DNA of 64,000 bases. Origin: Vermamoeba vermiformis. Taxonomy: Eukaryota. The notes under the pieces are model-generated. The model was given only the letters and a program-made list of their open reading frames with translations. It searched no databases and had not been told where the DNA came from. Positions 165 to 55,342 of the stretch are shown here, piece after piece; position 1 is the stretch's first letter; every line of letters begins with the position of its first letter. The position numbers were made by a program, and so were the translations under genes. Location: the NCBI GenBank assembly GCA_045837725.1, contig JBEWZL010000008.1, forward strand, positions 62,001 to 126,000, given 5' to 3'.

Positions 165-1058
165 ATGAGCGCACAGAACTCGCTGGTATTTAAATATGTG
201 ATTGTAGGACCTACTGGTGTGGGCAAGTCCTCGCTCATGCTTCAATTCACTGGTACGTGGTGCACTGGAGCCAATACGAGAATACAGCAACCAATTAATT
301 GCTATTAATTGTACCATATATTAAGACGTCCATATTTCCCAGAGTGCAATACTTGCAGCACATATTGAATTAATTGGTATTAATTGAAAGATTCTATTAG
401 AGCACGTCTTCCAGCCCTCGCACGAATTGACCATTGGCGTTGAATTCGGATCATTCTTTACGAGCATCAGTGGCAGAGATGTACGGCATTCAGTCCGCTA
501 GGTGTGGATCGAGAATCTGACATTTCCATTGCAGGTCAAACTTCAAATCTGGGACACAGCAGGTCAAGAATCATTCAGGTACCACTGCGCCAGTATATCC
601 CCGCTATTATTACTCACCTTGCACGCAGATCCATCACGCGCAGCTACTACCACGGAGCACACGGCGTGCTGCTAGTGTACGACATTACACGGCGCGAGAC
701 CTTTCAGTACATGAGCTCGTGGCTCGAGGAGTGTCGCCAACAAGCGGATGGTGCGCTGACCGTGGTGCTGATCGGCAACAAGCGCGACTGCGAGGACGAG
801 CGACAGGTCAGCGAGGAGGAGGGCCAGCTGTTTGCGCGCGAGCACGGCCTGTTGTTCATGGAGGCCAGTGCCAAGACCGCGCTCAATGTCGAGGCTGCAT
901 TCTTGCAGTCCGCGCAGCAGATCTACGACAAGTGGCAGCGCGGTGAGGTGGTGCTGTCAGATCCGGGCAACAAGATCAAGCTCGGCACGCAGCAGGGCAC
1001 GAGTGGCACCAACAACAACACGAATGGTGCGCCGAGTGAGCGCAAGTGTCAGTGTTGA
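165..1058 (+). CDS. Rab2-like small GTPase (4 exons: 165-252, 401-480, 535-578, 629-1058)
   Basis: Spliced translation gives MSAQNSLVFKYVIVGPTGVGKS...HELTIGVEFG...[21 protein letters not shown]...GNKRD...EASAK and a C-terminal CQC prenylation motif. All introns are GT-AG. Confidence 0.93.
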
Positions 1059-1163: not shown

Positions 1164-4100
1164 TTAAATCACGTGACTGTACCGGCGAGTGTGCTCAGAA
1201 TACACCAGCAGTGCCAAGAGACAGCACGTGATCATCAACACGGTAGTCAGCACGTGATTCAATTTGTGCGCGTCATCGTTTGACACCTGATGATTGACAC
1301 GAGTGACACGTGTCATCACGCGAGTCTTGCCCTGGTCCATGGCCTGCAACGTCTCCAGCTCGATGTCAAGTGTCGCTTTGACACGTGTCATATCGAGGTG
1401 TTCACGCGTCAACTTGTCCAATCGCGCGCGACTGTCCTGCAGCACGAGATGTGACTCGAGACTCATCAGTCGTGCGCGCAACAGACTGGCGCTGAGTTTG
1501 ACGAGGTGATTGAATGCCGCGCCACTCACCTCCTCGCGCACTGACTCCTGCACACGTGACGCTGCTGCGTTGTGAGCACGCATGCGATTGGTCAGTTCGT
1601 CAATGCTGCGCGTCAGACTCGTGTAGCGTGGTGAGCGCGGGGCCGTTGGAGATGCCAGCGGAATAACTCTGCTCACACGTGGACTGCGCGGACTACGCGG
1701 ACTTTTGACGGGCGGTAAATTTAGCTCCAACTCGTCTGCGTGGAGGACACGTGCCACTGCCGCAGTCTCGGGCTGCACTTCCATGGCAGTGAGTGGCGTG
1801 GAGGGATGGGCTGTGACAGGTGTCAATTCTTCGGCGGAATAACTCTCCTCATCGTCTTCGATGTGTGCCTCGTCCACCGATATCTCGGAGCGATCTCCGA
1901 TAGATTCATCGTCCTCGTGCTCGAATTCTGGCTCAATCATGAGGTCCTCGTCGTCGTCAAAGATCACGTGGTGCTCGTCCTCGTCCTCGTCCTCGTCGTC
2001 ACCCTGCAGCTCGACCAGCTCTTCGTCCTCTTTTGGAAAGTAGCTCTCTGCCAGCATGTTCTCCAGTTTCATGAACACGGTGTGCTGTCGCTGTTGCCAC
2101 GCCAGTTGCAGTGCTGTCGCGCCAGAGTTGTCGGAGATTTGAAACAGATCGAACGACCACAACTCTGCCACACACCCCACGTGACCACCTGCTGCTGCCC
2201 AGTGCAGGGCTGTGCGACCACGTGCGTCGCGTGCTAATTTGTCCGACTGATTGTCGACCAGGGTCTTGACGGCCTCTAAATGTCCGCGCTGTGCGGCTAT
2301 AATTAGCGCAGTCATGCCCTGCTGATCACATGCGTCTACCAAATTAGGCTCGGCACTCAACAGCTGTTCAATCACGTGCACGTGTCCGTGTCTGGCGGCC
2401 ACGTGGAGGGCTGTGCGACCACGTGCATCGGTGGCATCGGGAGTGGCACCGAGATCGAGCAGCAGTGCCACCAGTGCCACGTGATCACGCTCTGATGCGA
2501 GGTGCAGTGCAGTTTGGCCGTTGACATCTTGCGCGTCACGTGCGTGTGGTGGCAAATTGTCCCACAGTGTCTTCAGCAGCGTGACGTCGTGTGTGCCGTG
2601 CCAGGCCAAGTAGTGCAGCGGAGTGCGGCCCCGATGATCGCCCTGCGCGAGAGCTGGCGCGGGATTGAGCGCTAAAAATAGCTTCAACAATGGCGTGCCC
2701 TCGTATGTTGCGTCACGTGCCCAGTACGCGAGCCAGTGCATCAATCCACGTGACTTGTGATCGCGACACGTGACATCTGCGCGGTGGTCTACCAGGGCAG
2801 TGATCACGTGCTCAGCGTGACTCGCCACTGACTCGTGCAGCGGTGTCGCGTGTTTCTCGTCCGCGGCATTCGGATCTGCGCCGAGATCGAGCAGGAGATT
2901 CACGAGCTCAGGGTTGTTCCACCTGACTGCCAAGTGCAGCGGAGTTATTCCGGTGAGGTTCTTTTCATGAACGAGACTCGCATCGTAGCGCAGCAAATCT
3001 CGCACGAGCGCTAGTTGTTCCGCGCTGGGCTTGGCACGCAGTGCAGTGTGCAGTGGCGTGTTGTGGCCCTGGTCGAGTGTTTGCAACAATTTCTTTGCAG
3101 TGCTGTCACTGACACGTGTCAGAGCCCAGTTCATGAACGATTTGTTGCCAGCACGTGCTGCAACATGCAATGCAGAACGATGCCGACCAGATTCATTGCC
3201 TAATAAGGCAATAAACTGCTGATCATCGGAGATATGCGCTGAGATCACGTCGTAAAATTCTGCAGGGCTGCCATGTGCCATCCAATGCAGCGCGGTCCAA
3301 CCATTTTTGTCACGCGTTGTCAGCGATGACTTCTGAGCTAAAAATAACCGCAATGTTTCTGCAGAGTTCGCGTGGCTGGCAAGAAATAGATGCAAAGCTA
3401 TTCTGCCGTGTGCATCGGTGGCACTTGCTGTCTCGGGCGCGTGTTCTAATAATAGCCGCACGATGGATGCAGCTCCCAATCTCGCAGCGAGATGCAGTGG
3501 CAATCGACCGAGCTTGTCGGGTACTGTGGGAGATATTTCCTTTTTAAGCAATACCTGCACGCATTGCAGGGCGCTGTTGCTATTTATAGCTGCAGGATAG
3601 CGCTTGAGACCCAGCAGCACGTGATGCAGCAGTGAGCGGTGTTGCGAGTCTAAAAATAGCCACGGATGTCGATCGTGACAGTGGGTGAGCACGTGATCTA
3701 CCAGGGCCTCGCATCCAGACTGTGCCATCAACTGCAGTGCTGTCATGCCTTTGCGGTTCTGCTTGGCGAGTGGAGTGCCAGCTGCCAGCAGTAATTCCGC
3801 TGCGTGCACGATGAGTGCCACGCGACTGTCATCGTGTTCGAACCTAATCGGGACAGTGGCCAGCACGTGGAGGGCAGTGCTGTCGTAGTGATCCACTGCG
3901 CGGGGGTCTGCGCCTATTTTTAGCAGCAGAGCGAGACAGTCCACGACACCACGTGCACGTGCCAGCATGCGATGAGTGAGGGCGTGGTGCAGACCACTCG
4001 CAGTCACGTGCAGCACTGTGCGGCCTTGCAAGTCACGTGCGCGCACATCTGACAGCGGTGTCACGTGGGGGCGTGTGGTGGGTGAAGTTGAAATTTCCTC

Positions 4101-5435
4101 TGACAGCAGCGCGGACACCACTGATGCGCGGCCTGCCCACGCAGCCCAAAATAGCGGAGTTGTTCCGCGCTCGTCAACGGGGTCGTATGCCAAAGATAGC
4201 AATGTGTTGAGCGGAAATTCGTGCAGCTTGATCTTCTTTTCACGCGCGCGAAATTGTTCCCAAATTTGGTGCATGACTTGTCTGACGAGCAACTTGACAT
4301 GTTTGACAGGTCCGTACAGTGCCGCGTAGAACAGTGCTGTCATCCCTTGCTGATCACGTGACAGCAGGTCACTGCCGCGGTCAATCAGGGCGCGGAGAAT
4401 TGCCGTGTTGGGCAAGGCTGCTGCGTCTAAAAATAGAAGTCAGTTCGCAAGATCCGAAGCGTGCCAGTCACGTGACGTACAATGCAGGGCAGAGCGGGCT
4501 TTGACATCGACAGCAGTGAGCACCACGGACTTGTGTGCCAGCAGCGCGGTGACAGCACTCGTCTGTTGTGACAGCACTGCCACGTGCAGCACTGGCGGAG
4601 TGAGGCGTGTGTGCAGCGTGGCCCCGTGATCGATCAGGGCGCGGAGCACTTCGCCGAGACCGAGGCGTGCGGCCCACCAGACTGGACTGCGGCCCTCGTG
4701 ATCGATCGCATCGGGGTCTGCTTTCTGCGCTAAAAATAGCTTCACTGCCTGCACGTCATCGACCAGCACGGCAGCGAGCAGCGGCGTCACGCCATTTTTG
4801 GTCTTGACGTGCACACTCTGCGGGGTGTTTGCAACAATTTTGCGCAATCGACTGAAGCGAATCAAAGCATCGGAGCGCGGGGTGTGCAGCGGACTGTCCT
4901 CGTCACGTGATTGGTCAGAATCGTATTCGCTGTCACGTGATGCATTCATTCCTTGCACGCGATTCAGCATCGCCATCACGTGATTGGGCGTGCTATTTTT
5001 AGACTCGTCGTTCTCTGAATCGCTGCTCGACTGCTCGTCGTTCACTGTCACGTGATTGTGGAGCTCGCTGGTCGGTGGCGTTGAAATTTCATTCTCTGAA
5101 TCACTGCTGTCACTGCTGTCGGGATTGGCTTCGAATTCTTCGCGATTGAATCGATCGATCATGACTGCATCGGGGTGTATCACGCGCGGAGGTACGGAAT
5201 ATCTCCGTGCTGGGAGATCGTTGTGGCACCACTCGCTCGCAGTGCCTTGCAGTCGCGGGTGCATCACGCGGCCTGACTCGTCCACGTGCCACAGTTCACG
5301 AATGAGCACCTCTTGTTCCGCGCGATCGGCATTGAGCGTCAATATCGTCGACCAATCATCGCGCACCAAATTGCGCAGCTCGGCGGGTATTCGTCGACGG
5401 TTCATGGATCTCGCTCTAGCGGATAAATATTGCAT
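1164..5435 (-). CDS. Large ankyrin-repeat protein with acidic tract, coiled coil and C-terminal hydrophobic helix
   Basis: ORFs 4440-5459 and 1164-4415 join through a GT-AG intron at 4427-4480 (ALH-Y-AAALPNT). More than 20 G-x-T/S-A/P-L-H ankyrin motifs are present, and the end reads VLTTVLMITCCLLALLVYS. The start codon is uncertain. Confidence 0.88.
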
Positions 5436-5832: not shown

Positions 5833-8800
5833 TCACTTGGCGGTGAGGTAGGTCTCCATGACAGCTTTCATGGCCTTAAATCCTTCTTCGAGCTCTTTCT
5901 GGAAGGGAATCTGATCGGGATTGATGAGCTGACTGGATCTGTTCAACGCATCGGCGCACACTTCGAGGAACTCTTGCAGCGCACGACGAATCGACTCGAC
6001 CTGCTCGCTGTCGTACTGACCCTTGCTGGACTCGCTCAGGAACGCCTTGGCGACCTCAGTAGACCCAGCGTGTACCTCTGCGCAGTGTTAGTACCGGTAC
6101 AGTGTAGTGGCAGCAGATCTAGCTGCGAGCACTCTCTAGCTGCCAGTATTCTAGCAGCGAGTACTAGCACTCTAGCCAGTACTCTATCTAATACGTACGT
6201 GGTGAGACCGTGCCCTGCAGCACCCCCATCAGTGTCTTGGCATTGGGATTGCGCAGCTCGTTCTGCAGCTTCTGAATGCGCTTCTCCACGGTCTCGAGCG
6301 CGTTCTCAATGGGCGCGAGTTCGACGGAGTGCTTCTTGGTGATCTTGAGCCGCGTCTTCATGTACGGGAATGCTGTCTCGACCTGCAGAATCGTCTTGCG
6401 CTTGTACTGCTTGCTCAGATCACCGCTCTGCTGCTTGCCGTCTTTGGTGAACGGCGTCTCGAAGATGAACGACGCTGTGGCACGTGATTAGCGGGGGTCT
6501 AAAAATAGCTCAAAAGTGTTGCAAAGACTTACTAATGTTGTACGAGCGGTCGTAGTGCGTGACGCGGTCCTTGAGTTCCCAGGGCTCGAAGTACGGGTCC
6601 ACAGAGGTGATCTGCAAATAACACTGCTTGTCGAGGTCGAGCTTTGACACGTCCACGTCAGCGGAGGTAGTCAACAGCTGCACTTTGACACCTTCACCGA
6701 ACTTCTTCTGATAAAGATTCTAAAAATAGCATGGCAATTAGTCTAGTTGCCGTTGACACCTGTCACGTGACACATACCACCAGTCGATCGGAAATTTCAC
6801 CGAGACGTGTCAATTTGGGTTCTTTGTAAATGAACTCCTGGCCACTCAGCTCTTCGAACAAATTGCCAAAAAAGGCAACGCGATAGTAGCTGCCCAAGAA
6901 TCTGCTCTCATTTTGCATCTAAAAATAGAAGTATAAGTTATAGCCGCAGAGCAGGCGAGTCACGCGTACCGAGAGTATAATCTTGTCGAATATCTCCTTG
7001 AGATCGAGATGCGCGGCACTCAGCTTCACGTAGTCGCGATTCTTCTCGAAGATGGGCAGCAGCAGCTTGTACAGCTCGTTGCACGCCTCGTACAGCTCCG
7101 CTTGTCGCAGATAGTCGATGGCCTGGCACATCACCTTCACCAGTCCGTCTTCAGTGAATATTTGCAGCTCTGTCGTGGCCTCGTCGTCCGTCACACCGCC
7201 CAGCAGATCACCGCTCGACTCCAGCACCTCTTCCAGGGCACTGTGACTCACGTGCTCGAAGGCCGCACAGCCCACGGGCAGTCCCGGACTGGGCTCAGCT
7301 AAATTTAGAAACTCTGCGATCAGTGCCGCAATGTGCACGACTGCAATGCCTGCTTCAGCCCAGGCCCTGGTAGATGTGTCAGACAAAGATGGCGCACTAA
7401 AAATAGCCCGTACTTATTCTTCTCGTGCAGTGAGGCGAGTGATTTGAGCCACGTGACGCGGAGATCCGGCGCGTTGTTGTAACTCTGCGCGATGTGGTGG
7501 TACAGATCTGCCAGCATCTCGTTGTCTTTGTTCTATTTTTAGCGTGAGCGAGTGACAGCTGAAATAGTCGCAAAGACCGATTACCTTGGCGTGGCGAATG
7601 CTCTTGACGCTGTCCTCGAGAATAGTTTTCAGTCGTTGCACGAGTTGAATGGCCTGATTCTCGAGCTCTGCATCGCTGCCCTTGAGATCTGCGCGCACGT
7701 ACTCGGGCAAGACATCGAGGGCACGGCGCAGATAGGCCGGGTCACTCACTTCACCCTCACCCACCAGCTTGGACAGCGCGATGGTGGTTGCCACTTTGAT
7801 GCGCGTGAAGTTTTTCCGCTTGGTGGCCTCAAAGTTCTTTTTCATGAACAGGTAGATGATGGCACTGGCCTCGCTCCTGACTGCATTGTTGTTGTAATTG
7901 CAGTGCGCGAGGATGAGATTGCACAGCTTGGCACAGTACTGCGTGTTGAGCGTGAACAGTGCCTTGGGGAACTTGTAGATGAATGTGCGCAGCGTGGCGT
8001 AGGCGTGCGTGAGATAGGTGACGGACTGCTTCATCTTGAGCGAGGTCTTGAGCACTTTGAACACCTGATCGAGCAGCAGATTCGGCTGATGACTCTCCAC
8101 CAGCTCGCTCTCCTTGGCGGCCACAAAGCACTCCAGCGCATCGAGCAGGATCATCGACACCTCGTGACTCAAGTGACTCTCGCGCTCGCTGTTGTAGTCG
8201 AAGCGCTTGTCCACTTCACTCGCGTAACTCGCGCGCCATCGCTTGGGGTCTTTGATCGAACCACTCTGCGAACTCGACACACTCACGCCACTGCTGCTCG
8301 GCTGCGGTGTGTGTCCTGGCGTCGGGTTCTGCGATGGCGCTGTGCCACCACCCACCGTATTGCCGCGCGATCTCGCTTCAATTCTCCGCTCGCGCAGTGA
8401 TTTGTTGCGCGAATCAGATTCGTTGGGCTGATCTTGGTACTTCTCTTCGAACATGGCCATCACACTCGACTTGCTCTCGCTCTCGCGGTTCATCTTCTCC
8501 AAGTACGCCTCGCGACCCACGTGCTCGAACACACGTGCTGCAAATGACAGTGCGGTCAGGAATCCGACCAGACGCGTCACCGTGTCAATCTTCCACCAAT
8601 CGCGCATGAGGTGTGCGGAACAATTCTTGACAATGTAGCACCATAATAGGAAAGCACTGCGCTGCTCATCAAAATCTGCTTCACGATAGAAGGCGAGATT
8701 GTCGATCACCTGTCACGTGTCAGTTAAGTGCTAAAAATAGCCGCAGTACGTACGTGCAGCACGAAGGGGAAGTAGAGCTCAGCGATGCGTTGCTTGACGC

Positions 8801-11800
8801 CGCGCTTGTTGTAGCGGTGATCGTGGTCGTGGCGCATGAACAGCTGATGCAGCACGGCGAGGGCTTTGAGGCGCAGCGGCTTGTCGTGATTGATGCTCAG
8901 CTCGAACACTGCGCGCAACACCACGCCTGCCAGCACGTGGCGCTGTGCGTAGAGCTCCAAGAGCTTGGGCAGATTGGTGACGGTGAGTGCGTGGTGGCGC
9001 GGCAGATTGAGCTCAATCCAGTGCTCGTGCAGCACCAGGATCTTGATGTGTTCCAGCTTGACGTCGAGCAGTTGCAGCTGTGGCTCAGTGGTGCTGGGCG
9101 AGAGCTCTTTGATCACGTGCTGTATGACATCGAGCACCACACCGCGGTCCATCACAGCCAGCATGTCGGTGAGGTAGTGCGCGAGCGAGCGATTCAGATC
9201 TTTGAACACACTCAGCGTCTTCTTGAGCTGCGTCTGGATCTGATACGCCAGCAGCACGCACAGAGAGTGCACTGCGCGCTCGCACTCAGCACCGAACCGC
9301 TTCTGACGCGTGCTCTGATCCTCTGTGGCAAGGGGTCAGTGACTAAAAATAGCGCTATTGCGAGTACGTACGCAAGAGATGCAGTGCGGCGAGTCGATCG
9401 CACATGGACTTGTATATAATCTTGAATAGGAACCAGCTGTACTTGTGGTACTTCTCCAGCTCACTCACACTGGCTGGCGTGCTATTTTTGTCGCTGCTCT
9501 GCACGGTCATGCTGGCACTGGCTGCGATGACACCTTGCGGCAGTGCGGCGGTCTTCTCTTTGACTACGGCCAGCCACTGCTTCAACAGCTCGTAGTACAC
9601 CCAGCCATTCTCGTCGTTTAGTGCGCTGCTGTTGGTCTCGCTCTTCTTGGGGTCTACAAACACGTGCTCGACGTACTTTTCGAGGAATGCCTTGCTGTCG
9701 AGACTCTCGTTGTGCATGCTGGCAATCAGATTGATCAGCACGTGCAGAGCCTCGCGACTGAGGTCACTGCCCTGCGCGATGAGCTGCAACAGCTGCGTGA
9801 ACAGCACGGGCATGAACTGAATCACCACGCGCGGCTTGGCCTTGGTGAGCTGTGAGAGCGAGGTCGCGAGGGCCGTGCGATCGAGCTTGTGCTTCTTGTT
9901 GTCGACGAAGAACTGATTCACGTGCTTGTCGCTCGCGTGCACGGTGGAGACGAGACGCAATCGGAACTTGAAGGTGATCTTCTTGCTGTCAATCAAGCTC
10001 GCTTTGATCGCTTCACTCGCCTCTTTGCTCAGAAACTTGTTGGGCAGTTCACTCGCAATCGGAATCTGAATCTCTTTCTCCATGATGCGGCCCTTCACCA
10101 TAATAGGAATGAACGCGTACCCGACAATGGTCGGTTCCGAGGGTTTCTTGAGCTGACAGGGCACGTGATAGAAGGTGAACAGCAAGTTGTGGCGCGGCGT
10201 GAGGTGCAGCGGCAGCTTGATCTTGATCTCGTCGTAGAACTGCGGGGCTTTGTTGTGGTACTGCACGGCTGTGAACACGTGATCACTCATCTCGGGGTCC
10301 GCGCTGTTCTTGTTCCACAGTGCGCGCAGTTTGCTGGTGACGTCATCGGTTTCCAAGAATTGCACTGACACGGCAATGTTCCGCGCTGACTTCTGACCGT
10401 TGGTTTTGGTCAGATTGACCATTTCGGGATACAGATACAGATTGTTGACGTATTCCAAATTAGGATATGCCGTCAATGTTTGCGGGAATTCTTGCACTTC
10501 TTGAATGTACTGCACCAAGGTCAGCGGAACAATAATAACACAATCAGCGGTAACGTACCTCGGACGATGGCACTTTGACATCAGGGTGCACTGGCAGTGA
10601 ACAGGGCGACACGAGCACCTCTTGCATATTTGCAGGCTTGGCATTGGTATTTGCAGCCACATCACTCTGCGCCAGCTCTTTAATCTCGAGTGTCATGTAG
10701 CCGTTGAGTGGCTTCATTTTCTTGGAACTCGAACTGCCTTTTTCGGGCATTTGTTCAAAAAAGGCTAAATCTCCGACATCTCCGCGATATCGGTAGATAT
10801 TTTTCATGGTGATCTGATGCGGATGATCTTTGCTGCCGCTGGTGATGACACTCATGCTGCGGTCCTCGGCGTTGAACAGTGGCAATATGCCGACACAGAA
10901 CGGTTGACGCCACTGCCCCAAGCGCGCGCATCGCTCTTTGACATCGCGCTCAATCTTCTCGCGGTCCTTGTCCTTGACATTGTCGAACTTGACGTAGGAC
11001 TCGACACTCTCGTCGTAGTCGCCGTGCAGCACCTTCTCGATGCGCACCACGAGGAAGATGTCGGGACTCGGCGAACTCACCGAGAACAGCGCGCGCTTGC
11101 AGGGCTTGGTCTTGATCCGATGCTCGCCCAGCATGTCCGTCACTTCCGCACCGTTCAGCTCAAAGTAGTAGTTCTCTGATATGCGCACCTTCTTGGAGAT
11201 GTCGTAGAGGGCCATGGTGCAGAAATAGGGCTCGATGTTGCCCAGTTCAAACTTGAGTTCTTTGGGCTCTATCAAAAAGCGACGTACGCTGTCATAGCAG
11301 ATTGTAAGAACATCGTGTCGATAGGTGTAAGGTACGTACGGCTTTGGTTTGAATGGCGGCACTCGTTCAGTGACCACTGCTGCATCTGCTGCGGGATTGA
11401 GTTGATAGAGCTCGTGTCGTCCAAGCAGCTGGGGTTGTGTTAGCATTGCCTCATATAAACATGCGTTACGTACTCTGTTTTTTTCATTCAATCCATCGGT
11501 AGTCTTGGGCTTGTAACTCTCCAACAGATCAGTACGCACCACATCTCGTCCACTGGAGGCTCCAAGACCACTGGAACTTGGTCCTCCTGATGCGCTAGCA
11601 CCTGTACTCGACTCTTGTTGACTCTCCTCGATACTGTCTTCGTACAGCAAGCTCGTTAAGTTGGAGTCTGATTCACTGCGTGCTTTCAAGCCCAGATCGG
11701 CGCAAGTGCGTGTGTAGCCGCGCCACTTCGTCAGATAGAATTCTACGCAGTCTTTGACGTGAGGCAGCAATTTTTCCTTATCGCGTGCGTGTTGCCAATC

Positions 11801-12453
11801 TTTGATTTCGGGATCCAATTCAGTTCGAAACTCGCGAGGCAGTTCAACTTCTTTAATATCGTCTTTTGGAAATTCGAATAGCTCTTTATTAGCCTCTTTG
11901 ATCACTTCTTCTTTTTTGATTTCATTCTCGTAATCAAACGCTGGTGGACCGCCCTGCAGATTCAACGTCAATTAAATTGCATTAATCTGAATACACATTC
12001 ACGGTACAGTGGAATTATATTGAACAAAAATCGTCCCACTAATAACTGTGCCATATTGTCACCGAAATATCTCTATGTAATTTACCACTATTAAAGAAAA
12101 TCTTTTTATTTGTGATTGATATTGTGATTAATAATTAATTCTATTTGCTAGCTCAATAAGCTCTATTCGAGTCCATTGTAGCATATCATTACCTTGGTGA
12201 TTTCAGCTAATCGTGCAGAGAAGTTATCGCTCGAAACTGTCGTAAGTGTCTCGCTATCCGAACCTGGATCTGCACTCGAACCTTGACGCGAGTGCGGTGA
12301 TTTGCGCGCGCTATTGAGGGCAGCGCTGTTGTTGTTATTTTGCGAGCCAAATGGCATGCTCATCACACCTGTCACTGACGAGCCACCATACGGATTGGGT
12401 CGGTGAAAGCGACCAGATCCGAACTTGCCTGGGGCCGCCGGTGTCTGACTCAT
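5833..12453 (-). CDS. DOCK-family Rho GEF, zizimin / DOCK6-11 type (multi-exon)
   Basis: DHR-1/C2 signature YVNNLYLYP...[10 protein letters not shown]...[38 protein letters not shown]-2 signature [12 protein letters not shown]...WAEAG...[24 protein letters not shown]. Stop codon follows ...METYLTAK. Confidence 0.93.
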
Positions 12454-12659
12454 GTTTGTGGTACTGTAATATATTCAACTGCGCCTCAGACGCGAAAGTT
12501 CGCCCAGTCCGTCACGTGATTGGTGATTTTATCAATTTTAGACTGACCGTTGTTTGCCGCCGAAAATAATAATGAAATTTTGATTGATAGCAACACTAGC
12601 TGTTACGCACAGAGACATCTCATCAATACACTACTACGACGCATTGTACTCGAACAATA

Positions 12660-13285
12660 ATGAGCAAGCAACAAAGTTTGAACAAGTAAGTGGCACCGAA
12701 GAAGTTATCGATTGCTATTGGTAATTGACCTTTGTCTTGTTTGAAGGATGGTGAAGACACTCAAAAATACGGGCAAGATATCTGATGAGATGGAGGAATT
12801 GATTAACAAGAAGATTCAACTCGAACAAGATTTGGCCAATCTCGAGCGCCAGATTTACAACTTAGAGACGAGCTATCTGGAGAACTCATCGCCCATGGGT
12901 AATCTTGTGCAGGGCTGGAACGAGACTCCTGCCCGAAGCACAGTGAATAGTCAGCGCAAGCAAGTCGTGGATGAGGATCGGTTGTTCTCGCTTTCATCAG
13001 CCACTTCAATCAATGTACGTACACGTGCTTATAATTGTTCCATAGCAACTTTAACGAATCGTTATTGTTTCAGTACACACCGCTCGGGCAAAAGCAGGAT
13101 CTAGGTGAGTAGTGCGCGAGGCAGTGCCGGTGATCGAGCGATGGACTGAACTATTTTTAGATGCACCAGTGACACGTCCGCACAAGCAGATCAAGTTGAG
13201 CAAAAAGAAGTCCAAGCACCCCAAAGCGAGCTCGGTGAGTGAGGACGATGCGATGCAAGAGGACAGCTTGGAGACGTACGAATGA
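12660..13285 (+). CDS. EAF6: NuA4/MOZ histone acetyltransferase subunit EAF6-like
   Basis: ELINKKIQLEQDLANLERQIYNLETSYLENSSPMGNLVQGW...DEDRLFSLSSAT is the Eaf6/MEAF6 pattern. Four exons with GT-AG introns. Confidence 0.88.
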
Positions 13286-13408: not shown

Positions 13409-16257
13409 TTACATGCCGTTATTTACATCGTCTTCAGTTTGACACCTGTCATTCGCAGTGTCGAGCGCTGTCAACAACTGCTCTAACGCGTCACACTCGC
13501 GCTCACTCAGCTGCGCATTGACCGTGCTCAGCGCGTCACGTGTCAACTGCATGACAGGCACTGGCACTAACTGCAACAGATCACGTGACTGTACTTCGCA
13601 CTGAGCACGAACTGCGAGCACGTGATCGAGCAGTGGCTGCACGGTGTCAGGTGTCAGCAGGTAGTGCTCGCATAGCCACACGCACCTATTAATAGCGCAG
13701 TTGTTAGTTCAGTGAACTTGTGGTTCAGTGAATACGTACTCGCACGTGACTGGGGAGCTGCTGACAAGTTTAGTAATGTGCACGTGCCTGAACACGCGAC
13801 TCAACACGTGCAACAGTCCTGCTCCTGAAAATAGCGTCAATACGCGCAAATACATTGGTGCGGCAAATAAAATTAATTGCATTCAAAACGGGTAGTTGAC
13901 CCATATTTAGCGAAATTTCCTAACCTGGTCTGAGGAGCACGTCCCATCCTTGCAGTACGAGCGTGCCACCAACTGTCAAACATGTCAAAGCTACGCATAT
14001 CTCCGCACTAAGTGTTGACCACGTGATCTGCTCGAGTGCGTGGGTGTATTGTTCCGCTGACTCGTGTCGCGTGTGATACTCGATCACGTGACTCACGCCG
14101 TACCGCTCTTTGTGCCACTTGTTGCTGAGATTTCCAATGACAAGTTGACACTGCAATCCACTCACGCGCGAGATTGCGTGTTTGACACCTGTCACCGTGT
14201 CACTCCATGTACTGTTCACATCGAGATACACCACGTGACCGTCAACTTGTAGTGGCATGGTGTGCAGCGCGGTGACACGTGTCATTGCTGTGTGGGCGAG
14301 CAAGGCCTGAACAGCGCGGTTAACGGACTGCTCGTGCTGGCAATTGGACGTACCTGCACAGTGCCACCACGACCGCGTGATAGATCGAGCACGTGACCAG
14401 GATGAGTGGTCAGTGCGTAAAGCGGTCCTAATAATAGCTCCGCTAACTTCTCGCCATCCACGCTGAGATACGAGTGCTGGTACGGTGACTGGAGTGTTGC
14501 GAGCACTCGTTTGACACCTGTCATTCGCAGCGCTGAGCGCAGGGTCAGTTTCCTAATTCGGAGCGCGTCATCGATAAACTTGCTGTGATGCAGCTCAGCG
14601 ACACGTGATCCGAGCACTGGTGCCCCCCACGTGTCAATATCGCGTGACAGCACTCGACTGACAGCTAGTGGCACGTGACACTGGAGGGTGTGTTGCATGA
14701 GGGGCCAGTGCTGCTCTAACAGCGCGTGTACTGGCGAGTAGTAGTACTGCACGTGATTCAGCCAGACTCCTGTGTGACACGTGTCACTCTCCCGCTCAGA
14801 ATTATCGCCACGTGACCAATCTCCCGTGCAGCTCTCTTCTTCGCACCGTGCAGCCACGTGATCGACCAGTCGTTTGTCACGTGGCAAGGGACAGGGCGTG
14901 TAGCGTTGCAACCATTCTTGGGCAATCACGTGCCGATCGGTCAAGATCTGTCTATTTATGGCAGGTGTGCGGTGTCCGTACAGCGCGAGATTTCGTGTGA
15001 TCGTGCGCAGCTGCAGCTCCACGAAGAATTGCGAGCACGTGATCAGATCTTGTACGAAGGTGGCAGGTATGCGATCACGTGCCAGCATCGCGTGCGAGGT
15101 CAGTTGCGTGCACGTGACTTCAGACCAGCTTTCAGTGAATTGCACGAGGATGTCGAGCACGTGCTGATTCAATCCACGGAAATTCAATCCGACGAGGTAG
15201 ACCTGTCAACCCGTTATCCACTGCGCACTGTGGCACTGTGCCACTCGCTTACCTCGGAATTTCCCGCTTTGCTGGCACTAGGCTTGCAGATGATGAGCCG
15301 TTCAAAACTGACACGTGCCAGCAGCAGCGAATTCACTGTCACGTGCTCGAACAGCGTGAACAGCTTGAGGACCAGTGTGCCACCACGGTCCAGTACGCGC
15401 AGTGCCACCAATAATTCACTGAAATGCAACGGTGCAGTCACGTGCTCTTGTTGCTCTGCGCGATGTCAGTACGAGTTTCCAAATAAGGCAATGAACAACA
15501 TACCCGGCACCTCGCTGCAGTCAACGCTGCCATCAGCTGTCACACATGTCACTTTGCGTCCCTCGCGCATCACGTGCTCGACGATGGCATTCATCGTGGA
15601 GCTGCGCAGGAGATTGCCCGAGTCTTCAGGACCAAATATCCAGTGTCTAAATGTGGCAATCATCACGTGATCGTCGCTCAGCATTGTTCCGCACTTGTTC
15701 GACTCGTGCCACGGATTCAACGTGCTCGCCAGCCACGCGTGCTGCAGCTCGGGTCGGTGCGCGTGTACGAAGTGTCTGGTGCTGCTGATGAATGCACCTG
15801 GGGCCTCGCAGAGGTGCAGCGAGCGGAAGGGAGGCTGAGCGGTGTCTCGTGCATCGTGCGCGGGATCTGGAGGCAGAATCTGCTCGCGATAACGCTGCAG
15901 TATTTCGTACAATTTTGCCCACGCAATCGTACATATTTCTAAAATATTAGCATTTATTATTTCGCTGCAATTAAAATTACCTGGCTGGACTTGCTCGCGG
16001 ATCTTGTAAACAACATCGCGCGATCTGCTGGTGAAATCTGTATGTTTACTCCAATGCGTTATATTGACAAAATCTAACTCGCTCTTCATACAATTTAGCC
16101 TTTCTTTTAACGCTTGAAGCTCGGGAATGTGATAGATCTCGCTCGAAAAGTATTCTGCAGCATCGAGCGGTAAAACGAAGAGCGGATCCAACGATTTGAA
16201 CTCATAATACTTGTTAAATAGTTCTTCTACCGAATCAAATTCAAAATCGAGTTGCAT
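13409..16257 (-). CDS. CMTR2: Cap-specific mRNA (nucleoside-2'-O)-methyltransferase 2 (FtsJ-like)
   Basis: AWAKLYE, SLHLCEAPGAFI, WLASTLNPWHE, VTADGSVDC, LVLKLFT and KPSASKAGNSEVY supply the K-D-K-E tetrad of RrmJ-fold 2'-O MTases. A degenerate second MTase-like domain follows. Confidence 0.9.
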
Positions 16258-16379
16258 CGCACATTGTTGTGTTGCTGCGTTTCATGGCGCAGTGACATTT
16301 GAGTATTCTTGTTTCGAATCTTTAAGTTTTCATACGAATTGTATCACTTTTCTCGAGTCGTCCTGCACAATGTGAGCAA

Positions 16380-16452
16380 GGTGTCCGTCCATGGTCAGGG
16401 TGTCTGTCCACGGTCAGGGCGTCTGTCCACCGTGGATGGGGTGTCCACCGAC
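16380..16452. repeat. Short tandem repeat, about 19-bp unit (gtgtcygtccayggtcagg), 3-4 degenerate copies
   Basis: Directly visible at the left edge of the repeat cluster. Confidence 0.7.
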
Positions 16453-18790
16453 CTTAGTAATTGCCAATTCAAATACACCTTGCTTCAGTGAGTAGAACAT
16501 GCATATAGTATATGTGGTTTTTGCTTTCTGGCTGCTGAGGAGTGCTGAACGGAAAGTATGAGGGGATGAAGTTGCCATACATTTTTGATTTCAGAAAATC
16601 ACATCTAAGTGGTGGCACTGAGCTTAACCACCCATACATCCGAATTCACTCTGAAGAAGCTCCAGCTCACAAAACTCAGGGAAAGTGGGCCTACTTCAAG
16701 AGCTCCCACCTACAGTTCTACGGAACAATTTTTTCTTTCTCCGCATTTTAAGCAGTGCCTGCCAAGTCCCTATCTATCTAATCAAATAATAAACTTATGC
16801 ACAGAATTTTATCTAATTTGGTCAACTACTAAAGAGTCGGCCATGCCTTCACGTGGCTCCACTTTTTGCTGGATGGGCGGCCAATCCAGGGTAGGTGACA
16901 TAGCTGCCAAGGTGAGATGTCCAGCCCGGCTAAGTTATCCAGCCCGGCGAAATCCAGCCCAGACAAGTTACTTGCAATGTCCTGAACAAGTAAAAGTATA
17001 TGGGGGTTTGCAAAGAACTTCTTCGCTTTGGGTGGCCATAAGGACAGAGTAACCTGTCCGCCGAAAATTGGACGTCTGCATGGACTGCACGTCCACTGAC
17101 CATACATTATATAGTACGAAGTTTTTAATAGGATTTCTATCGCCATGTATGTGGTTAAGCATATCCCCCCATATAAAAAGGTTTGCCACCATGCTGGACA
17201 AGTTACAACATAAAAAAGTATGGCGGACGTCCTGTCCGCCAAAAATTTTTCGTCCGTCCGTGGACATTGCGTCCGTCCGGGGTCACTGCGTCCGCTGATG
17301 TTAGTAATTGACCAACTTATACCAAACTCGGCCATTAGCATCAGTGGACCCAAGAAGCACTACTATTGGCATCAGGAGGCTTTGGGCTAAATGCCAGAGG
17401 CTGAAAATGGCAATGTTCTGCAAAGAACTTCAGTACTAGAACTTTGTTCTATTTGCTGCAATACCATTGAAACTTTGGAAACACCTAGATCTATCACTAT
17501 CTAAGAAGAAAATATAAGTAATCATCAATGATATTGTAGTGGCAGCAATTTGTAAATTTTCAGCATTAAGTATGAACCCACCCACCAGCACATGTTTGGT
17601 ACAACACAAATATACGTATTTTATGCAACCCTGAACTTTGGCTACAATGCATTGTCACCTAGCTATGAAAATTTTTTATAATCATCTATACTTTTTTATG
17701 TTGTAACGTCCAGTATGGTGGCAAACCTTGTTATAATGAAGGGATATGCTTAATCATATACATGGCATACAGAAATCTTGTTAAAATCTTCATACTATAT
17801 GATGTATGGTCGGTGGACGTGCGGTCCATGGTGGACGTCCAATTTTTGCCGGACAGGTGTCCGCCTATGGATAATGCAAAATTTTTTGGACAGTTAGGTG
17901 ACAATGAATTGTAGCAAGTTCAGTGGTGCAAAATACGTATAGTTGTGTTGTACACAGTATGTGCTGATGGATGGGTTCATACTTAATGCTGAAAATTTAC
18001 AAATGGCTGTCACTACAATATCTTTGACGATTACTCATATCTTCTTGTTATATAGTGATAGTTCTATGTATTTCCAAAGTTTAAATGGTTTTGCAGCATA
18101 TAGAACAAAGTTCTGGTACTTAAGTTCTTTGCAGAACAAAGACATTTTCAGCCTCCAGCGTCTAGCCCAAAGCCTCCTGATGCCTAATAGTCCTTCTTGG
18201 GCCCGCTGGTGCTAATGGACACAGCGACCCAGATGTCCAAGGATGGAAGAAAAACTTTTTGGCAGACGGGAAGTCGCCTATGGATAGCTGGCCAAGCCGG
18301 ACCAGCCACTTCCCACGTTTGCAGTTAGAGGCTGTATCCGGCCCCAGAATGAGGGATTAATCCATTCAACAGCAAGGAATTCCCGCAAAACTTTGTTTCT
18401 GGATAGAACAGAGAACCAGACTGACAACAAAGTCCACCAAAAACTTTTTTTCCATCCTTGAATGTTGGGGGTGCTGCATTGAGTTAGGAGAAAACACCAT
18501 ACACAATCTTAGGCTAAAAGTCAGTTCCTGTAGAACTATTGCTTTTCTGGAGAGATTTCCAAATTGCTTTCTTTGTTTATAGTTTTTCGTCCACCACGCT
18601 GCGCGTCTGCTGACCATACATCATATAGTATGAAGATTTTAATAAGATTTCTATATGCCAAGTATATGATTGAGCAATCCTTTCATATTTAACCGGTTTG
18701 CCACCAGCTGGACAAAGTTACAACATAAAAAATTGTGGATGATGCAAAAAATTTTGGATAGCTTGGTGACAATGCATTGTAGCCAAAGAT
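16380..18790. mobile_element. Decayed non-autonomous repeat cluster (MITE/foldback-like) with interleaved inverted and direct copies
   Basis: About 17050-17220 is inverted relative to about 17690-17860 and direct relative to about 18590-18735. About 17222-17680 is inverted relative to about 17880-18280. No credible protein is encoded. Confidence 0.75.
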
Positions 18791-18994
18791 CCATTCCACT
18801 GTGTAAGTAAGGGATGGTTGATCAGATTCCATTTTTATCATGCAGGGATGGCCTGTTGGTCAACCTCTGTTTATTGAAGGTTGGGTTCTGTCTCAGAGTA
18901 CCCTGTTGAAAAGTCTGCATATTTCAGGTTTCAAAAAGGATCTGTCAATCAAGACCAAGTGCTTGCAAATCCACAGCATAAGAAAGAACGAGAT

Positions 18995-31339: not shown

Positions 31340-31537
31340 CCTCCAAGGAATAACTATCACCAATGCATGTGACAGCTGCTCTCGTTACAATTACACGCAC
31401 AATGCTCGAGGAATTCGCAGCCATTTACTAGTATGTATATATTCACAAAATTGTTGCTTAGTGGCCGTGTCTGTGACCTCCAAGTTTGTCCTCCTAAAAA
31501 AGTACGTTAAAGGACTGCAATCATCATCAGTGAAATT

Positions 31538-34325
31538 TCATACCACGTGCGTCAAATCTCGCCGCGTGATCATGCCCACGACCCTGTTGTGCTGATCGAC
31601 CACCACGAGGTGTCGCAGTCCCATGGTGCGGAACAATTGAAAGACACGTGACAGTGACGAGCCCTGCTGGATGACAAACGGCGCCTGATTGATGTCTGCA
31701 CGTGATTGGTCAGAACTTGCGACTAAATATAGCAGCAGTACGTACAAGGCGTGAGGTCCAAATATTGCGCCAATTCATCGTGCGCGAGTGACACGGAGGT
31801 GATGGGCGGGTAGCGCGGATAGTCCTCCGAGAAGTCGAGCAGCGTGACGGGCTGGTAGTAGCTCTTGGTGCCACTCGGACTGCGCTGAAAGGCCTTGTGT
31901 CCTAATAAGGTAATCAGCTGACTGCGCAGTATCAGCCCCGCAAAGGTGCCGTCATCGTGCACGACAGGGAAGCCATTGTGGTGCGTGTGGTGCAGCACGT
32001 GATGGAGGTGCGCGACTTGTTCCACGCGACTGAACTGCGTCACTGGCCGCGCCATCACATCGGAGGCGCGGAACTTGCGCATAAAGTGCGGTGGCTCCCA
32101 GTGCAACAGCGGGATTTGTTTCACTGAACGCGGTGAGTCAGTGCGCATAGCCTAATTAGGACACGTACCTTCGATGGCAATGTCGTAGAGGCCTTCATTG
32201 AACCAGTCACCCGTCCACTTGGCCACCATCAGCGTGATCATGATCGGCAGACCGTACGTCGTGTCATTCGTCGCTTCGATCAGAATCACCGTCAGTGCGA
32301 TGGTCATGCGCGTCACTCCACCTAAAAAGGAAGCTGCACCAATTAAGGCAAATGTGCCCGGATTGATGCGCCAGGCCGAGCCAATGTTGTTGAGCAGTTG
32401 ACCGACGAGTCTGCCGTACGAGGCACCAGTGAGAATGGCGGGCACGAACACCCCGACCGGCGCAGCAATGCCCTGCGTCCAACAGAAGAGTGCAAAGTAG
32501 ATGCACGTGAACACCGCGAGCGTGCTGAAGCTGAACTCGCCCTCGTTGTGCAGCAGCTGTTTGATCGCGAGTTCTTGCGTCGTGAAGAACACTGTCGCCA
32601 TGTCGTTGTAGTAGCCCTGGTAGAGGGTCAGCACTGAGCGGTCTTTGCAACTATTTAGTGCAATACTTACATTCGGACAGAAGAATTGAAAGTGATTGAT
32701 CTCCGAGCCTTCATTCGGTCCCAGATCAGTGCCGCGCAATCGACTGTGTGACACGTGTCAATCACTGAACTGCATTCGCGTGATGGAGGACTTACCGACA
32801 GGCGTGTACAAAATAGGACAAGTTGAAGGAGAAGACGCTGACCACAAAAGCTAATAATAGTGCCTCAAAGAACTTGAGGAACTTGTTTTGCAGATATTTC
32901 ATGCGGAACAATGTGAGCTTGAGAATCACGTGATTGTACAGTGCGCCCAACAGTCCGCCAATCACACCCATCAAGATGAAGAACGGAAAGTGCACGATGG
33001 AGTAGCCGTGATCGACTTGATTGCTGAACGTGCCAAAGTTGACGAGACCGGGCTGTGACAGCGCACCCCACTTGTTGTAGGTGGCCCCCGAGGACAGGAA
33101 GTTGAAGGTGAAGGTCGACACCAGCGAGGTGAAGAATATTCGCCACGTGAGCGGTTGATTCCAGAACGAGGCACCCTCTTCCAGGGCAAACAACACGCCA
33201 CCAATCGGAGCTCCGAATGCTGCGGCCACACCTGCTGCTGCACCACCACTCACAAAGTCGCGCTTCTCGCTGTCACGTGCTGGTCAGTACTGGCACTCGT
33301 TTGACACGTGTCACTCACCGATCATTGCGGAAATACTGCACGAGATGCGTGTCCAATGTCTTGAATGTGGTGGACTTGCCCTGCGAGAGACCTGCAGCCA
33401 CTATAGCGCCCTGTTGAGCACGTGTCAGCACGCACCAGACATGACCAAATTAGGCAATTACCGTGTGAATCATCGGCCCCTCTTGTCCTGCAGGTATGCC
33501 ACTTGCCACAGTGAGCAGCGTGCCAAAGACTTTGCAGAGCAGTGTCTTGAAGCGAATGATGTGCGGCACTTTGATGCCGTTCAAATAGCTCTAGTCACGT
33601 GTGCGATGAGTGTCGAGTAGCGCTATATACAACACTGTGCGTACCTTGATCTCGGGTATACCGGACCCCCCTGCTGCGGGTTCAATGAACACGATCAGAA
33701 ATGACGCGACACCGACCAGCACGAGATTGAAGCCGAGGTAGATGAGAAATGGATTCCAATAGCAGTCATTGCAGTCGATATTCAGCTGATTGGCCAGATA
33801 AAATTTGAGATATGCGGTGGATCTGATGCCTGTGTCCACTGCCCACGCCACACTACCTACGAGCACTGCAATCACAAAGTTCATGCCCCACCGTGCCAGA
33901 TCTCGATTGCGAAAGAACTATTGTCGTATTAATATGAATGTACTACCTAATGAACAGCACTAGGGGCTCTGAATACTTACTCGACTCGTTTTTGCTTGGA
34001 TTTCCTTTTGATACAAATCATTCTCGACAATATCGTAGTCTAAGCTCTATAATAGCACAGAATGATTATGAATCACGATATTGGTTATTACAATAACGAT
34101 ATTATGCCACACAATATTCCGAATTATTTTATTATTAATTTTCGGATCTGAGAGTGGCAATGTAACCGCTCGATCGAATTTGTATGCATATATAATTACC
34201 TCGTATTTAGTTTTCGTAATGCCCACTTCTTTTTTTAACTCCTTCATCGCCTCTCGCGATCGCGACATGGATCGCTGACGAGTCCGCCGTGTGGGCACAG
34301 TAATCTGAGTATCCCCGTTCATCAT
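31538..34325 (-). CDS. CLC chloride channel/transporter, CLC-6/7-like, with two CBS domains
   Basis: [58 protein letters not shown] and [14 protein letters not shown]. Confidence 0.95.
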
Positions 34326-53506: not shown

Positions 53507-55342
53507 TTATTCCACATGGATCATGGTGCTGCTGGCAGGGGGCATAAAATTACAAGGGAGCGGCGACACGGAGTTAGTGTCCACAAACGAGAAGTTATTA
53601 TTTCTATCTACAATTTTGAAAGTAGGGGGGAAAAAGAGGATTGATCCAGGGATGGGTTTTTGTACAGGCAAGGGAGGGAGAGTGATGAATGGTGCCGAAA
53701 CGTTGGCTTCGGTAGGCGATGATGGCGAACTCTTGCGTTGCTCGCCTAATTCGAATTCAGACAAGCTAGCGAGTTGCATCAAAGGATCAGATCTGAGGCA
53801 GGAATTAGCTTTCATGAAACGAGATACAATATTCGTGCTATAAGTACGTACTCTTCAGCAATGGAAAGGAAGGCAGAGCGAGTTGATGGCTCCAAAAGTT
53901 GACGTTTCGGTGAACTGTTGAGACAACAAATTAGCGTCCAATTTCACAACAGCTCGGTGAGTGCAATACTTACGCAGCGAGAGGCTGAGCTGTATGCACA
54001 TTGACTGGCACGGGGATGACTGGCGAGGGGAGTTGTTGTTCGGGTTGCTTTTGTTGTTGCAATCGTGAAAATACGTCGAACACCTTGGTCAAGCTCAATG
54101 ACTCTAACTCCATAGCGCTCTCTGATGATCGCGAGCCCTCAGAGTCAAAACTCTTTGACATTGGCGATGAGGGTGCTGAAGAGTAAGAACTCGAGTCACT
54201 GTTGCGGATCTTTTTCTTGATGACTTTATCCTTTGTTGCTTTGCCTATTGATATTAAAATATAAGGAATTAATAAAATGCTCGAGTTAGAGCAAAACAAA
54301 GCTAAGAGAATCATAAGTAGCAAATTTCGAGACCTAAATGTCAGGTTGGATAGGAAGTGTCCGACAGGTCTAAAAGTCTTGCAGCCACGAAATTGAATGG
54401 CAAATTTACCGCATGAGCGGCGGCAATTGCTTGATATTTCAATGAGGTAATATGAGAATAAGGAATAAAGAGTGGAGTACTTTAACTGTGCAAAGTAGTC
54501 GCACGACTTACCAGATGGCGATGATTTCTTATCGCTGGCAAGCACGATAGGATTTCGCATGAGAAAGTCTCGCTTATTCTTCAGTGTTTCAAGCTCTTGT
54601 GCTATTCTGAGCTGATCTTCGGGATTCTTTGCGCTGGATTTCTCGAGCGAGGCTATCATCTTGTCCAAGCTCTTAATCTGTATGAAACAAGAGTTAGAAC
54701 TATTGACTGCAATACTTTCAGACCCTAGAGAAGGCCGAAAAGAAAGTATGAATTTGGGATTTGACAAGTTCACTAAACGATTGATTTCACAAAAGTAACG
54801 TACCTTTCGGTGAGGCCATCGTGGAATACCACTCTTGCGGCAAATTTTCTTTAATACGGTAGCGCAGACCTATTATAAAAAGCATAAGAATGTCTCTCTG
54901 ACGAAAAGGCACGTAAAACTGGTAAAATTTAGGGTGGGTATTAAAGTCTCTACAAAGGGACAATATGAAACAAAATACAACAAATAGGAAGCTTATGACG
55001 CATAAGAACTAGTTCCGAAATGAATTTCGCAAACAGTGGTCATGGATCAGTCAGCCGTTGATAATTCAACCCATCCAGAGAAATTCAGACCCAAGTCGTG
55101 GAGCAATTTCGCAAGTAAATTTGCAAGTAAAACAATACGATTTCTGTCCTTTTTATTATCTCAAAGCCGTAATTGCTCTGGGAGGATACTTACGCCAAGT
55201 TCTCTAGCGACATCTGAACGAAAGGGCAAAAGTTAGCAAAAAATGTTTCTGAAAACAGTAAATTTGGGGGTTATAGCTTACCATTGATGGGTAGATGGAA
55301 GTATTTTGAAAGAGTTTCCAAATCGAAGCGAGGGGCAGACAT
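53507..55342 (-). CDS. RWP-RK (NIN/RKD-like) transcription factor
   Basis: Spliced N-terminus MSAPRFDLETLSKYFHLPIN-DVARELG-VCATVLKKICRKSGIPRWPHRK-IKSL. Confidence 0.88.

Follow-up and report, generated by a model that had tools for sequence, protein, structure and literature searches.

Gene bodies beside transposon nests in Vermamoeba vermiformis are loaded with transcription factor-like DNA words that leave an imprint on proteins

In the genome of the amoeba Vermamoeba vermiformis, small transposon nests lie at the centre of broad zones in which genes fill with short DNA words that resemble transcription factor (TF) binding sites. We describe this for a window of 64,000 nucleotides (assembly GCA_045837725.1, contig JBEWZL010000008.1, here C8, positions 62,001 to 126,000) and for the genome around it. 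The window contains an ankyrin-repeat gene with 39 copies of the E-box CACGTG and, about 11 kb further on, a nest. Each nest of 2-3 kb centres a zone where gene bodies, and not promoters, gain GC and TF-like sites. A fixation bias for these motifs overrides a mild amino-acid cost, and the proteins carry an imprint of His-Val (HV), Ser-Arg-Asp (SRD) and Thr-Arg-Val peptides. The genome comprises 43.3 Mb in 309 contigs, about 2% of which was read directly, and genome-wide statements are pattern searches. Positions are those of the window unless a contig (C) is named.

Results

The ankyrin-repeat gene is the clearest case of a DNA word that biases amino-acid choice.

1164 to 5435, minus strand: ankyrin-repeat gene, 1405 amino acids, two exons; predicted model based on the gene finder, an orthologue alignment and RNA-type contigs
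4427 to 4480, minus strand: predicted intron of 54 nucleotides, which holds GTCACGTGAC and ends in CTATTTTTAG, a MEF2-like word as 3' splice site

A first-pass annotation had pointed to an extreme CACGTG density here, counted by eye. The exact count is 39, with all 13 quoted positions among them, while dinucleotide shuffles give a mean of 3.5 and a maximum of 10 (500 shuffles). The expectation of about one copy per 4 kb that it used is slightly low for the local GC, which leaves the conclusion unaffected. Its statement that the sites fall in different frames also holds: 38 of the 39 lie in the coding sequence (CDS), in frames 18/18/2, and one lies in the predicted intron. Further words in the gene span are 6 CTAAAAATAG, 4 TGACASSTGTCA, 1 CCAAATTAGG, 5 GCGGAAYAA and 4 ACCAGGGC. 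Among the matches listed, at least 34 of the 39 copies are within gap-free pieces of RNA-type contigs, that is, contigs from runs whose contigs show neighbouring genes spliced. These sites are therefore exonic, the KTRVMTRVTRVNH stretch included, and overlooked introns are ruled out as their location. The predicted intron is based on splice signals, the gene finder and the orthologue alignment, and is absent among the RNA joints listed (15 of 32).

When the protein is held fixed and synonymous codons are shuffled, 13.3 copies are expected in the CDS; when codon order is shuffled, 4.2. Both values are exceeded, therefore the load has a synonymous and an amino-acid layer, with codon choice and residue order both bent. 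HV occurs 21 times in the ankyrin protein where 6.2 are expected, and 20 times against 6.2 and 15 against 4.5 in orthologues of 83% and 57% identity, compared to 3-4 against 2.1-2.5 in the paralogue clade. Site by site, these two orthologues retain motif-compatible residues at 33 of the 37 and 19 of the 30 positions aligned, as opposed to 4 of 27, 6 of 28 and 4 of 26 in paralogues, whose low identity (34-41%) explains part of the difference. Motif-compatible residues are thus uncommon in the paralogues, and the refuting case named in the first-pass annotation, the same HV, Thr-Arg and SRD residues in relatives without the motif excess, did not arise. A frequent replacement at motif sites, from paralogue to ankyrin protein, is HL, HF, HI or NL to HV. 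The paralogue in the same genome matches a protein recorded under the name Vermamoeba vermiformis at 89%, which rules out a host only distantly related to Vermamoeba. It has 11 CACGTG, no CTAAAAATAG and a GC content of 0.446, against 39, 6 and 0.567 in the ankyrin gene. A metagenome scan for the DNA of the 83% orthologue returned one unrelated locus. The earlier proposal that the DNA word drives residue choice is borne out, and the imprint is real, old and mostly conservative. The framing as one word in one gene was too narrow, since many words are involved and the effect is regional and strongest in introns.

The region is organized around the nest.

1 to 41500, unstranded: motif-rich, GC-raised zone, which starts at C8:58 kb, some 4 kb ahead of the window, and fades by about C8:103 kb
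16341 to 18980, unstranded: CpG-poor nest without coding sequence, made of direct and inverted repeats set into one another, with DDE_Tnp_4 (PIF/Harbinger-type) remnants; zone centre and candidate centromere core
17050 to 18220, unstranded: nest core, common to 19-23 other loci examined
16364 to 16442, plus strand: 19-bp tandem unit, common to other nests

The whole window holds 186 CACGTG where an order-2 model predicts 31.6. Motifs and GC on C8 peak at about 58-103 kb, and similar zones occur on C3, C11 and many other contigs. The nest in the window measures 2.6 kb (16.3-19.0 kb), and the same repeat family occurs at the centre of other zones. The zones reach about 45 kb to each side. At loci not selected for motifs, the nest itself has 6 CACGTG per 10 kb. 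The density there reaches 32-38 at a distance of 1.5-20 kb and then falls to 20 at 20-30 kb, 13 at 30-40 kb, 8 at 40-60 kb and 5-6 beyond 60 kb, and GC declines from 0.51 to 0.41-0.44. Control hexamers vary just 2-3 fold over the same distances, and a genome-wide CACGTG excess is ruled out by a background of about 0.5 per kb. Compound MEF2 plus E-box matches behave likewise: 82 of the 99 on nest-bearing contigs are within 40 kb of a nest, and on contigs of known length the figure is 54 of 69, against 14.1 expected. Of 16 nests fetched by position, 12 had at least 12 CACGTG per 10 kb in the 4 kb of flank nearest to them, and two of the other four (C153, C202) are rich farther out. Nests on C13, C294 and C300 also have motif-rich flanks. 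In the opposite direction, from zone to nest, the C132 zone contained a nest and a C200 stretch turned out not to be motif-rich. A second zone on the same contig was rejected at the compound-match places probed (C263:262k, C179:687k, C84:268k, C232:28k, C232:441k, C66:83k, C209:483k), which are at background; C179:305k is intermediate, with 8 CACGTG in 4 kb and a GC content of 0.434.

CACGTG is not the sole word in excess: ten or more TF-like words, unrelated to one another (E-box and words resembling MEF2, SRF/CArG and TALE sites), increase together with GC. Genome-wide, TGACACGTGTCA has 2793 copies and its reversed control 4, and CTAAAAATAG has 1612 against 214 for its control. A de novo motif search in 345 kb near nests returned, in the first 14 of 28 rounds, GTCACGTG, GACACGTG, CACGTGAT, CTATTTTTAG, ACCAGGGC, TGACAGGTG, TTCAGTGAA, CCAAATTAGGCAA, TGCCACCA, TTGTTCCGC, TTCATGAAC and CCTTATTTGG. 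By their consensus we take these to include sites of basic helix-loop-helix (bHLH; E-box), MEF2, SRF (CArG) and TALE-homeodomain proteins, as candidate labels. The words have no sub-word common to all, and several are non-palindromic. Each of nine words tested, AT-rich ones included, exceeds its one-mismatch neighbours by about 9-80 fold. The motifs have no strand bias and no clear nucleosome-scale periodicity, and their flanks are unique sequence. The genome encodes five HLH matches, three with the H-x3-E-x3-R basic pattern. For the best bHLH-ZIP protein the nearest structures are MITF, SREBP1 and USF, with Cbf1 also among the matches. A bHLH-ZIP gene lies at C236:151.9 kb. This search for encoded factors was made for bHLH proteins, and the MEF2, SRF and TALE links are those of word consensus. 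One of the five bHLH matches (C276:327841-327990, L095) lies about 18 kb from a nest and so, by distance, within a zone. Two further observations concern the words themselves: a composite CACGTGATTGG, an E-box fused to a CCAAT box, is repeated at 4904-4922, 12472-12483 and 31700-31710, and the MEF2-like CTATTTTTAG serves as 3' splice site of several introns (4427, 6720, 6919, 13148-13160).

To assign the load to gene compartments, a gene finder was run on 843 kb, with genes at most 25 kb from a nest counted as zone genes and with second haplotypes (C153, C269) and transposon-only contigs excluded from compartment and gene counts. CACGTG per 10 kb amounts to 42.6 in exons, 58.3 in introns and 4.2 in intergenic DNA of zones, against 5.3, 10.5 and 2.7 far away. 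The self-trained gene models over-called introns, recovering 12 of 14 known ones and splitting the ankyrin gene in five. The main numbers were therefore repeated with a more conservative first-pass gene model (14 of 14 introns, with splice matrices trained on those same introns) minus 15 motif-picked loci, and the results held: exons and introns have 42.7 and 54.5 in zones against 6.2 and 8.1 far away. A strong motif is present in 9 of 14 RNA-verified introns. Intergenic DNA has 5 strong motifs per 10 kb between divergent and 28 between convergent genes, and the motifs avoid promoters as well as the first 300 bases.

The proteins follow this pattern. In 147 zone genes HV is 2.69 fold enriched, the reverse VH stands at 0.85, SRD is 4.6 fold enriched and His makes up 3.64% of residues; 44 far genes have 1.25 for HV and 2.15% His. 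GC at four-fold degenerate sites (GC4) is 0.68-0.69 in zones against 0.47-0.51 far away, a difference that persists with motifs masked (0.717 vs 0.482). Intergenic GC is flat (0.381 vs 0.393), a logit shift of -0.05 compared to 0.75-1.2 at four-fold sites. A single shared rate for GC and motifs per gene is unsupported, with rho -0.37 between GC4 and CACGTG density in 97 zone genes. In far genes, too, GC climbs from 5' to 3' and CACGTG is in weak excess on the 3' side (ratio 2.4-4.8); the process may therefore operate faintly throughout the genome.

Haplotypes bear on the kind of force. One haplotype pair was found in a zone (C153/C202, 23 kb, 1.24% different), and it has 10 private motif copies where 25.2 are expected under neutrality. 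Pure gain bias predicts 25 (P 5e-4) and pure protection 1-3 (P <=0.002), while a fixation bias of 2-3.4 units (Ns scale) predicts 7-11. Site-making alleles are thus favoured once they have arisen, by about 2-4 units per step. Strain variants from reads, of which 40 of 469 were listed, were too few to polarise and do not enter this comparison. The ratio of non-synonymous to synonymous polymorphism is 0.055 in the zone pair and 0.105 in the comparison (one pair each), which rules out relaxed selection on zone proteins, and haplotype divergence is 1.24% in the zone and 3.4% outside (again one pair each). The latter value comes from C269:35001-45000 and C270:319001-329000 (L035, L034), haplotypes assembled apart with 3.4% substitutions and 95.6% identity with gaps; the amoeba is either highly heterozygous or has diverged chromosome copies.

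Nests were matched on 68 contigs, 39 by DNA search, 15 by a 13-mer, 13 by another 13-mer and 1 by direct fetch. The DNA search scored 40 of 86 candidates and a 13-mer recovered 20 of the 23 nests examined, so detection is incomplete; 11 of the 13 contigs from the other 13-mer are single unverified matches, with 3 chance matches expected from the control. Four of the 68 contigs are tiny and some are second haplotypes. Among the 39 contigs whose length is known (16.1 Mb), not one carries a second nest, although 9-11 such contigs are expected at random (P ~1e-5), a count that rests on contigs, none of them telomere-to-telomere. Four far second nest matches were fetched, and none of the four is a nest. 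Nests have a CpG observed/expected ratio of 0.60 with TpG+CpA at 1.32, and are motif-poor (23 CACGTG in 59.8 kb). On five contigs the telomere-to-nest distance is about 35, 80, 103, 148 and 254 kb. TTAGGG telomere arrays occur at 12 contig ends (C8:124, C78, C84, C151, C232, C16, C44, C46, C230, C252, C294, C301), and the window lies 62 kb from such an array.

An element on C142 (L092:670-3024) is apparently whole, with terminal inverted repeats at L092:670 and 3024 and an apparent AT duplication. It encodes a DDE_Tnp_4 transposase (PF13359 above cut-off in two exons) and is inserted inside a related element. The AT duplication would presumably place it in the ISL2EU group. The transposase gene has introns, and the left end contains a tandem GC-rich unit. 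A piece on C7 matches the element at 98.6% over 811 bp; the element has possibly been active recently and targeted to its own nests.

The window contains further genes that bear on the zone.

165 to 1057, plus strand: short, highly covered Rab gene within the zone, without CACGTG (an internal contrast)
5833 to 12054, minus strand: DOCK-like gene (named from reading the translation), whose RNA-verified introns carry motifs
13409 to 16257, minus strand: putative CMTR2-like gene, adjoining the nest and very motif-rich
31458 to 34268, minus strand: CLC6/7-type chloride channel gene
35021 to 36912, plus strand: putative PI4K-like gene, with four SRD in the predicted CDS
46440 to 46493, minus strand: predicted in-frame intron of an ADA-like gene, containing STRVTRH

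The first-pass annotation had seen the same imprint in CMTR2, PI4K and ADA. Predicted models agree for CMTR2, with 26 CACGTG and 14 HV in the CDS, and for PI4K, with 11 CACGTG in addition to its SRD peptides. For ADA the claim probably fails, as STRVTRH falls inside a predicted GT-AG intron. In the chloride channel gene the motif-coded NHV, FTC and HHV differ from relatives, and other motif residues fit conserved ones by codon choice. At conserved alignment columns, a departure from the outgroup is no commoner among motif-coded residues (5 of 15) than among the rest (115 of 395). A motif resembling RWP-RK marks a gene at 53507-55043. Elsewhere, an 18S ribosomal DNA match of 2310 bases against a 1831-position model, perhaps with an insertion or intron, lies 70 kb from the nest on C11 (C11:679063-681372, L033), and no link between it and the neighbouring C11 zone was found. 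Two identical-scoring, inverted small-subunit ribosomal RNA matches (C309:33071-34564 and 55063-56556) perhaps mark an organellar genome with an inverted repeat.

Discussion

The nests are probably the centromeres of this amoeba, because there is one per contig and because they are self-nested and CpG-poor, like the DIRS-1 clusters of Dictyostelium. Passages of a study on Acanthamoeba give at least 35 chromosomes with centromeres unplaced (PMC9528979), and by that measure 50-60 nest loci in 43 Mb would be a possible karyotype.

Our preferred explanation, to which we give a probability of roughly 45%, is that weak selection loads gene bodies beside centromeric nests with TF sites to keep them open. 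The nests would be methylated, repressive centromere cores, and the genes beside them would occupy a repressive, clustered compartment. Each extra site for an abundant factor (a bHLH-ZIP protein of MITF/USF/SREBP type, MADS, TALE or others) in a nucleosomal gene body might then slightly aid openness and transcription, or alternatively help centromere function. A large amoeba population could fix such tiny gains, as with codon bias. Promoters would be spared because they are already open and intolerant of new sites. Selection of this kind would account for where the zones are centred, how the motifs decay with distance, why promoters are spared and why the words are so varied. The GC rise would require a second regional cause, a mutation spectrum or conversion, with the same centre.

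Several observations weigh against this explanation. The motif-independent GC4 rise is left unexplained by selection for sites and reaches farther than the motifs. Introns are equally loaded across GC4 gene classes, high-GC4 genes included (99, 110 and 110 per 10 kb), which looks like a blanket pressure instead of need. Zone flanks have a CpG observed/expected ratio of about 1.05, thus no CpG loss, and methylation is not seen to spread from the nests, which at 2.6 kb are small relative to a reach of 45 kb. Centromeres of many microbes are AT-rich, and a GC rise is untypical of them. The nests on C292 and C89 have motif-poor near flanks, and no nest was found in the 21 kb searched of a motif-rich C179 stretch. 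The polymorphism test is one pair, for which selection and drive predict the same number.

A bolder possibility, which we put forward tentatively and hold to be somewhat doubtful, is that the nests are centromeres and that the genes beside them experience a transmission bias which is blind to function and favours bound protein on DNA as such, be it centromere or conversion drive. Sites for any TF would be over-transmitted, and the TF repertoire would have been written into exons and proteins of about a tenth of the genome at least since the divergence of the orthologue at 57% identity.

Conversion drive in particular is a close rival to selection, if on balance an unlikely one. Homologous repair would be frequent and GC-biased, and the allele covered by protein would be cut less, act as donor and spread regardless of its effect on the encoded protein, so that the motifs would be functionless. 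This offers one cause for GC and motifs with a shared centre and gene-body profile, and it fits the many unrelated words, the lack of strand bias, the equal loading of introns in all gene classes and the lower haplotype divergence in the zone; the polymorphism is compatible with any fixation bias. Yet intergenic GC is not raised, the motifs spare promoters, where breaks usually form, CACGTG density within zones tends to fall as GC4 rises, and a transposon nest at a recombination peak would be unexpected. No paper on such a drive was found in the open-access literature searched. Passages of PMC6237102 supply the logic of the hotspot paradox, here in reverse, and also report that double-strand breaks arise chiefly at promoters, with repression at the pericentromeres of Arabidopsis. 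This pattern weighs against a drive for which pericentromeric gene bodies would have to break and intergenic DNA would not.

Mutation or repair bias alone seems improbable. Bound factors would shield sites from damage, or site-creating mismatches from repair, in a zone with a GC-favouring spectrum. Competition of TFs with mismatch repair has been reported (parts of bioRxiv 10.64898/2026.10.19.760246, citing Zhu et al. 2025), and the weak motif excess in far gene bodies would fit. However, rate differences of 10-80 fold would be needed at nearly all positions of nine words, and the haplotype pair agrees with neither pure gain nor pure protection, a result that concerns each alone and not a mix.

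We likewise see little chance that the nests are another one-per-chromosome centre, a dominant early replication origin or a pairing centre, which the transposon targets and for which TF sites are selected. The one-nest spacing data speak for this idea too, as does the GC peak untypical of centromeres, and AT skew differs weakly between genes directed toward and away from the nest (P 0.04, 86 vs 101 genes). GC skew in the same genes gives P 0.12, with no intron skew switch, and self-nested, CpG-poor transposon clusters are a known amoebozoan form of centromere (passages of PMC2995078). Ordinary causes, that is ankyrin composition, GC content, gene-specific regulation or repeat-borne motif spread, have a mild HV excess of 1.39 in 114 unrelated ankyrin-repeat proteins in their favour, but can be dismissed with near certainty, being refuted by the paralogue and shuffle controls, by the HV enrichment of zone over far genes with VH at 0.85, by control hexamers that rise 2-3 fold at most, by the unique motif flanks, by motif-poor nests and by depleted promoters.

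Under selection as under drive, chromosome position would shape protein sequence via DNA-binding proteins, as the His contents of 3.64% and 2.15% suggest. The nests provide a candidate centromere map for the amoeba, of which none was found in the literature searched, and the zones a sequence-only marker for such loci in relatives as well as, at no extra cost, a record of which binding sites suit the cell's factors best. Two questions become testable in a culturable amoeba: how housekeeping genes fare beside centromeric heterochromatin, and whether occupancy alone biases transmission. Motif-derived residues can also mislead phylogeny and selection scans.

A search of the open-access literature (subscription papers and supplements being outside its scope) turned up no account of Vermamoeba motif zones or centromeres and none of a comparable halo in other organisms, and it listed no Hi-C paper on Vermamoeba; passages of PMC12697723 and a term search of PMC13191114 hold no mention of motif or centromere. 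Among known centromere systems, passages of PMC2995078 describe those of Dictyostelium as one methylated, H3K9me-marked cluster of the transposon DIRS-1 per chromosome. This resembles the one nest per contig seen here in another amoebozoan. However, DIRS-1 is a retrotransposon in terminal clusters of 200-300 kb, while Vermamoeba has internal nests of 2-3 kb made of a DDE DNA transposon in gene-dense DNA, and in those passages no mention of a motif halo was found.

Other systems share single features with the zones. Budding-yeast CDEI is a CACGTG bound by Cbf1, and so ties a bHLH-ZIP E-box to centromeres. It is one site per point centromere, whereas each Vermamoeba zone has about 200 sites, most of them in the genes that flank the nest and few in the nest itself. 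The PATCs of Caenorhabditis elegans are a dispersed gene-body sequence that shields genes in repressive domains from silencing; they are periodic A/T runs in introns without a protein imprint, in contrast to TF-like sites without periodicity. GC-biased gene conversion produces isochores with a regional GC4 rise and can fix amino-acid changes, but alone it would leave AT-rich words like CTAAAAATAG without an excess, and intergenic GC should rise under it. In Neisseria and Pasteurellaceae, biased transmission fixes DNA uptake sequences, words that a protein recognises, within coding DNA and so changes amino acids. There, one word per clade serves one uptake receptor genome-wide, and there is no centromere-like centre.

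The nearest known system is the cyanobacterial HIP1 (GCGATCGC). According to PMC5861425 it is 15-300 fold over-represented inside open reading frames as well as between them and conserved, has no peptide or gene-regulatory role, and has been proposed to have a chromosome-level function; PMC4390886 ties it to methyltransferases. The zone words of Vermamoeba are likewise conserved and in strong excess in coding and non-coding DNA. HIP1 is a single palindrome spread genome-wide, while here at least ten words, several of them non-palindromic, are confined to zones and missing from promoters. The zones might thus be seen as a eukaryotic, region-bound, many-factor counterpart of HIP1 and the uptake sequences.

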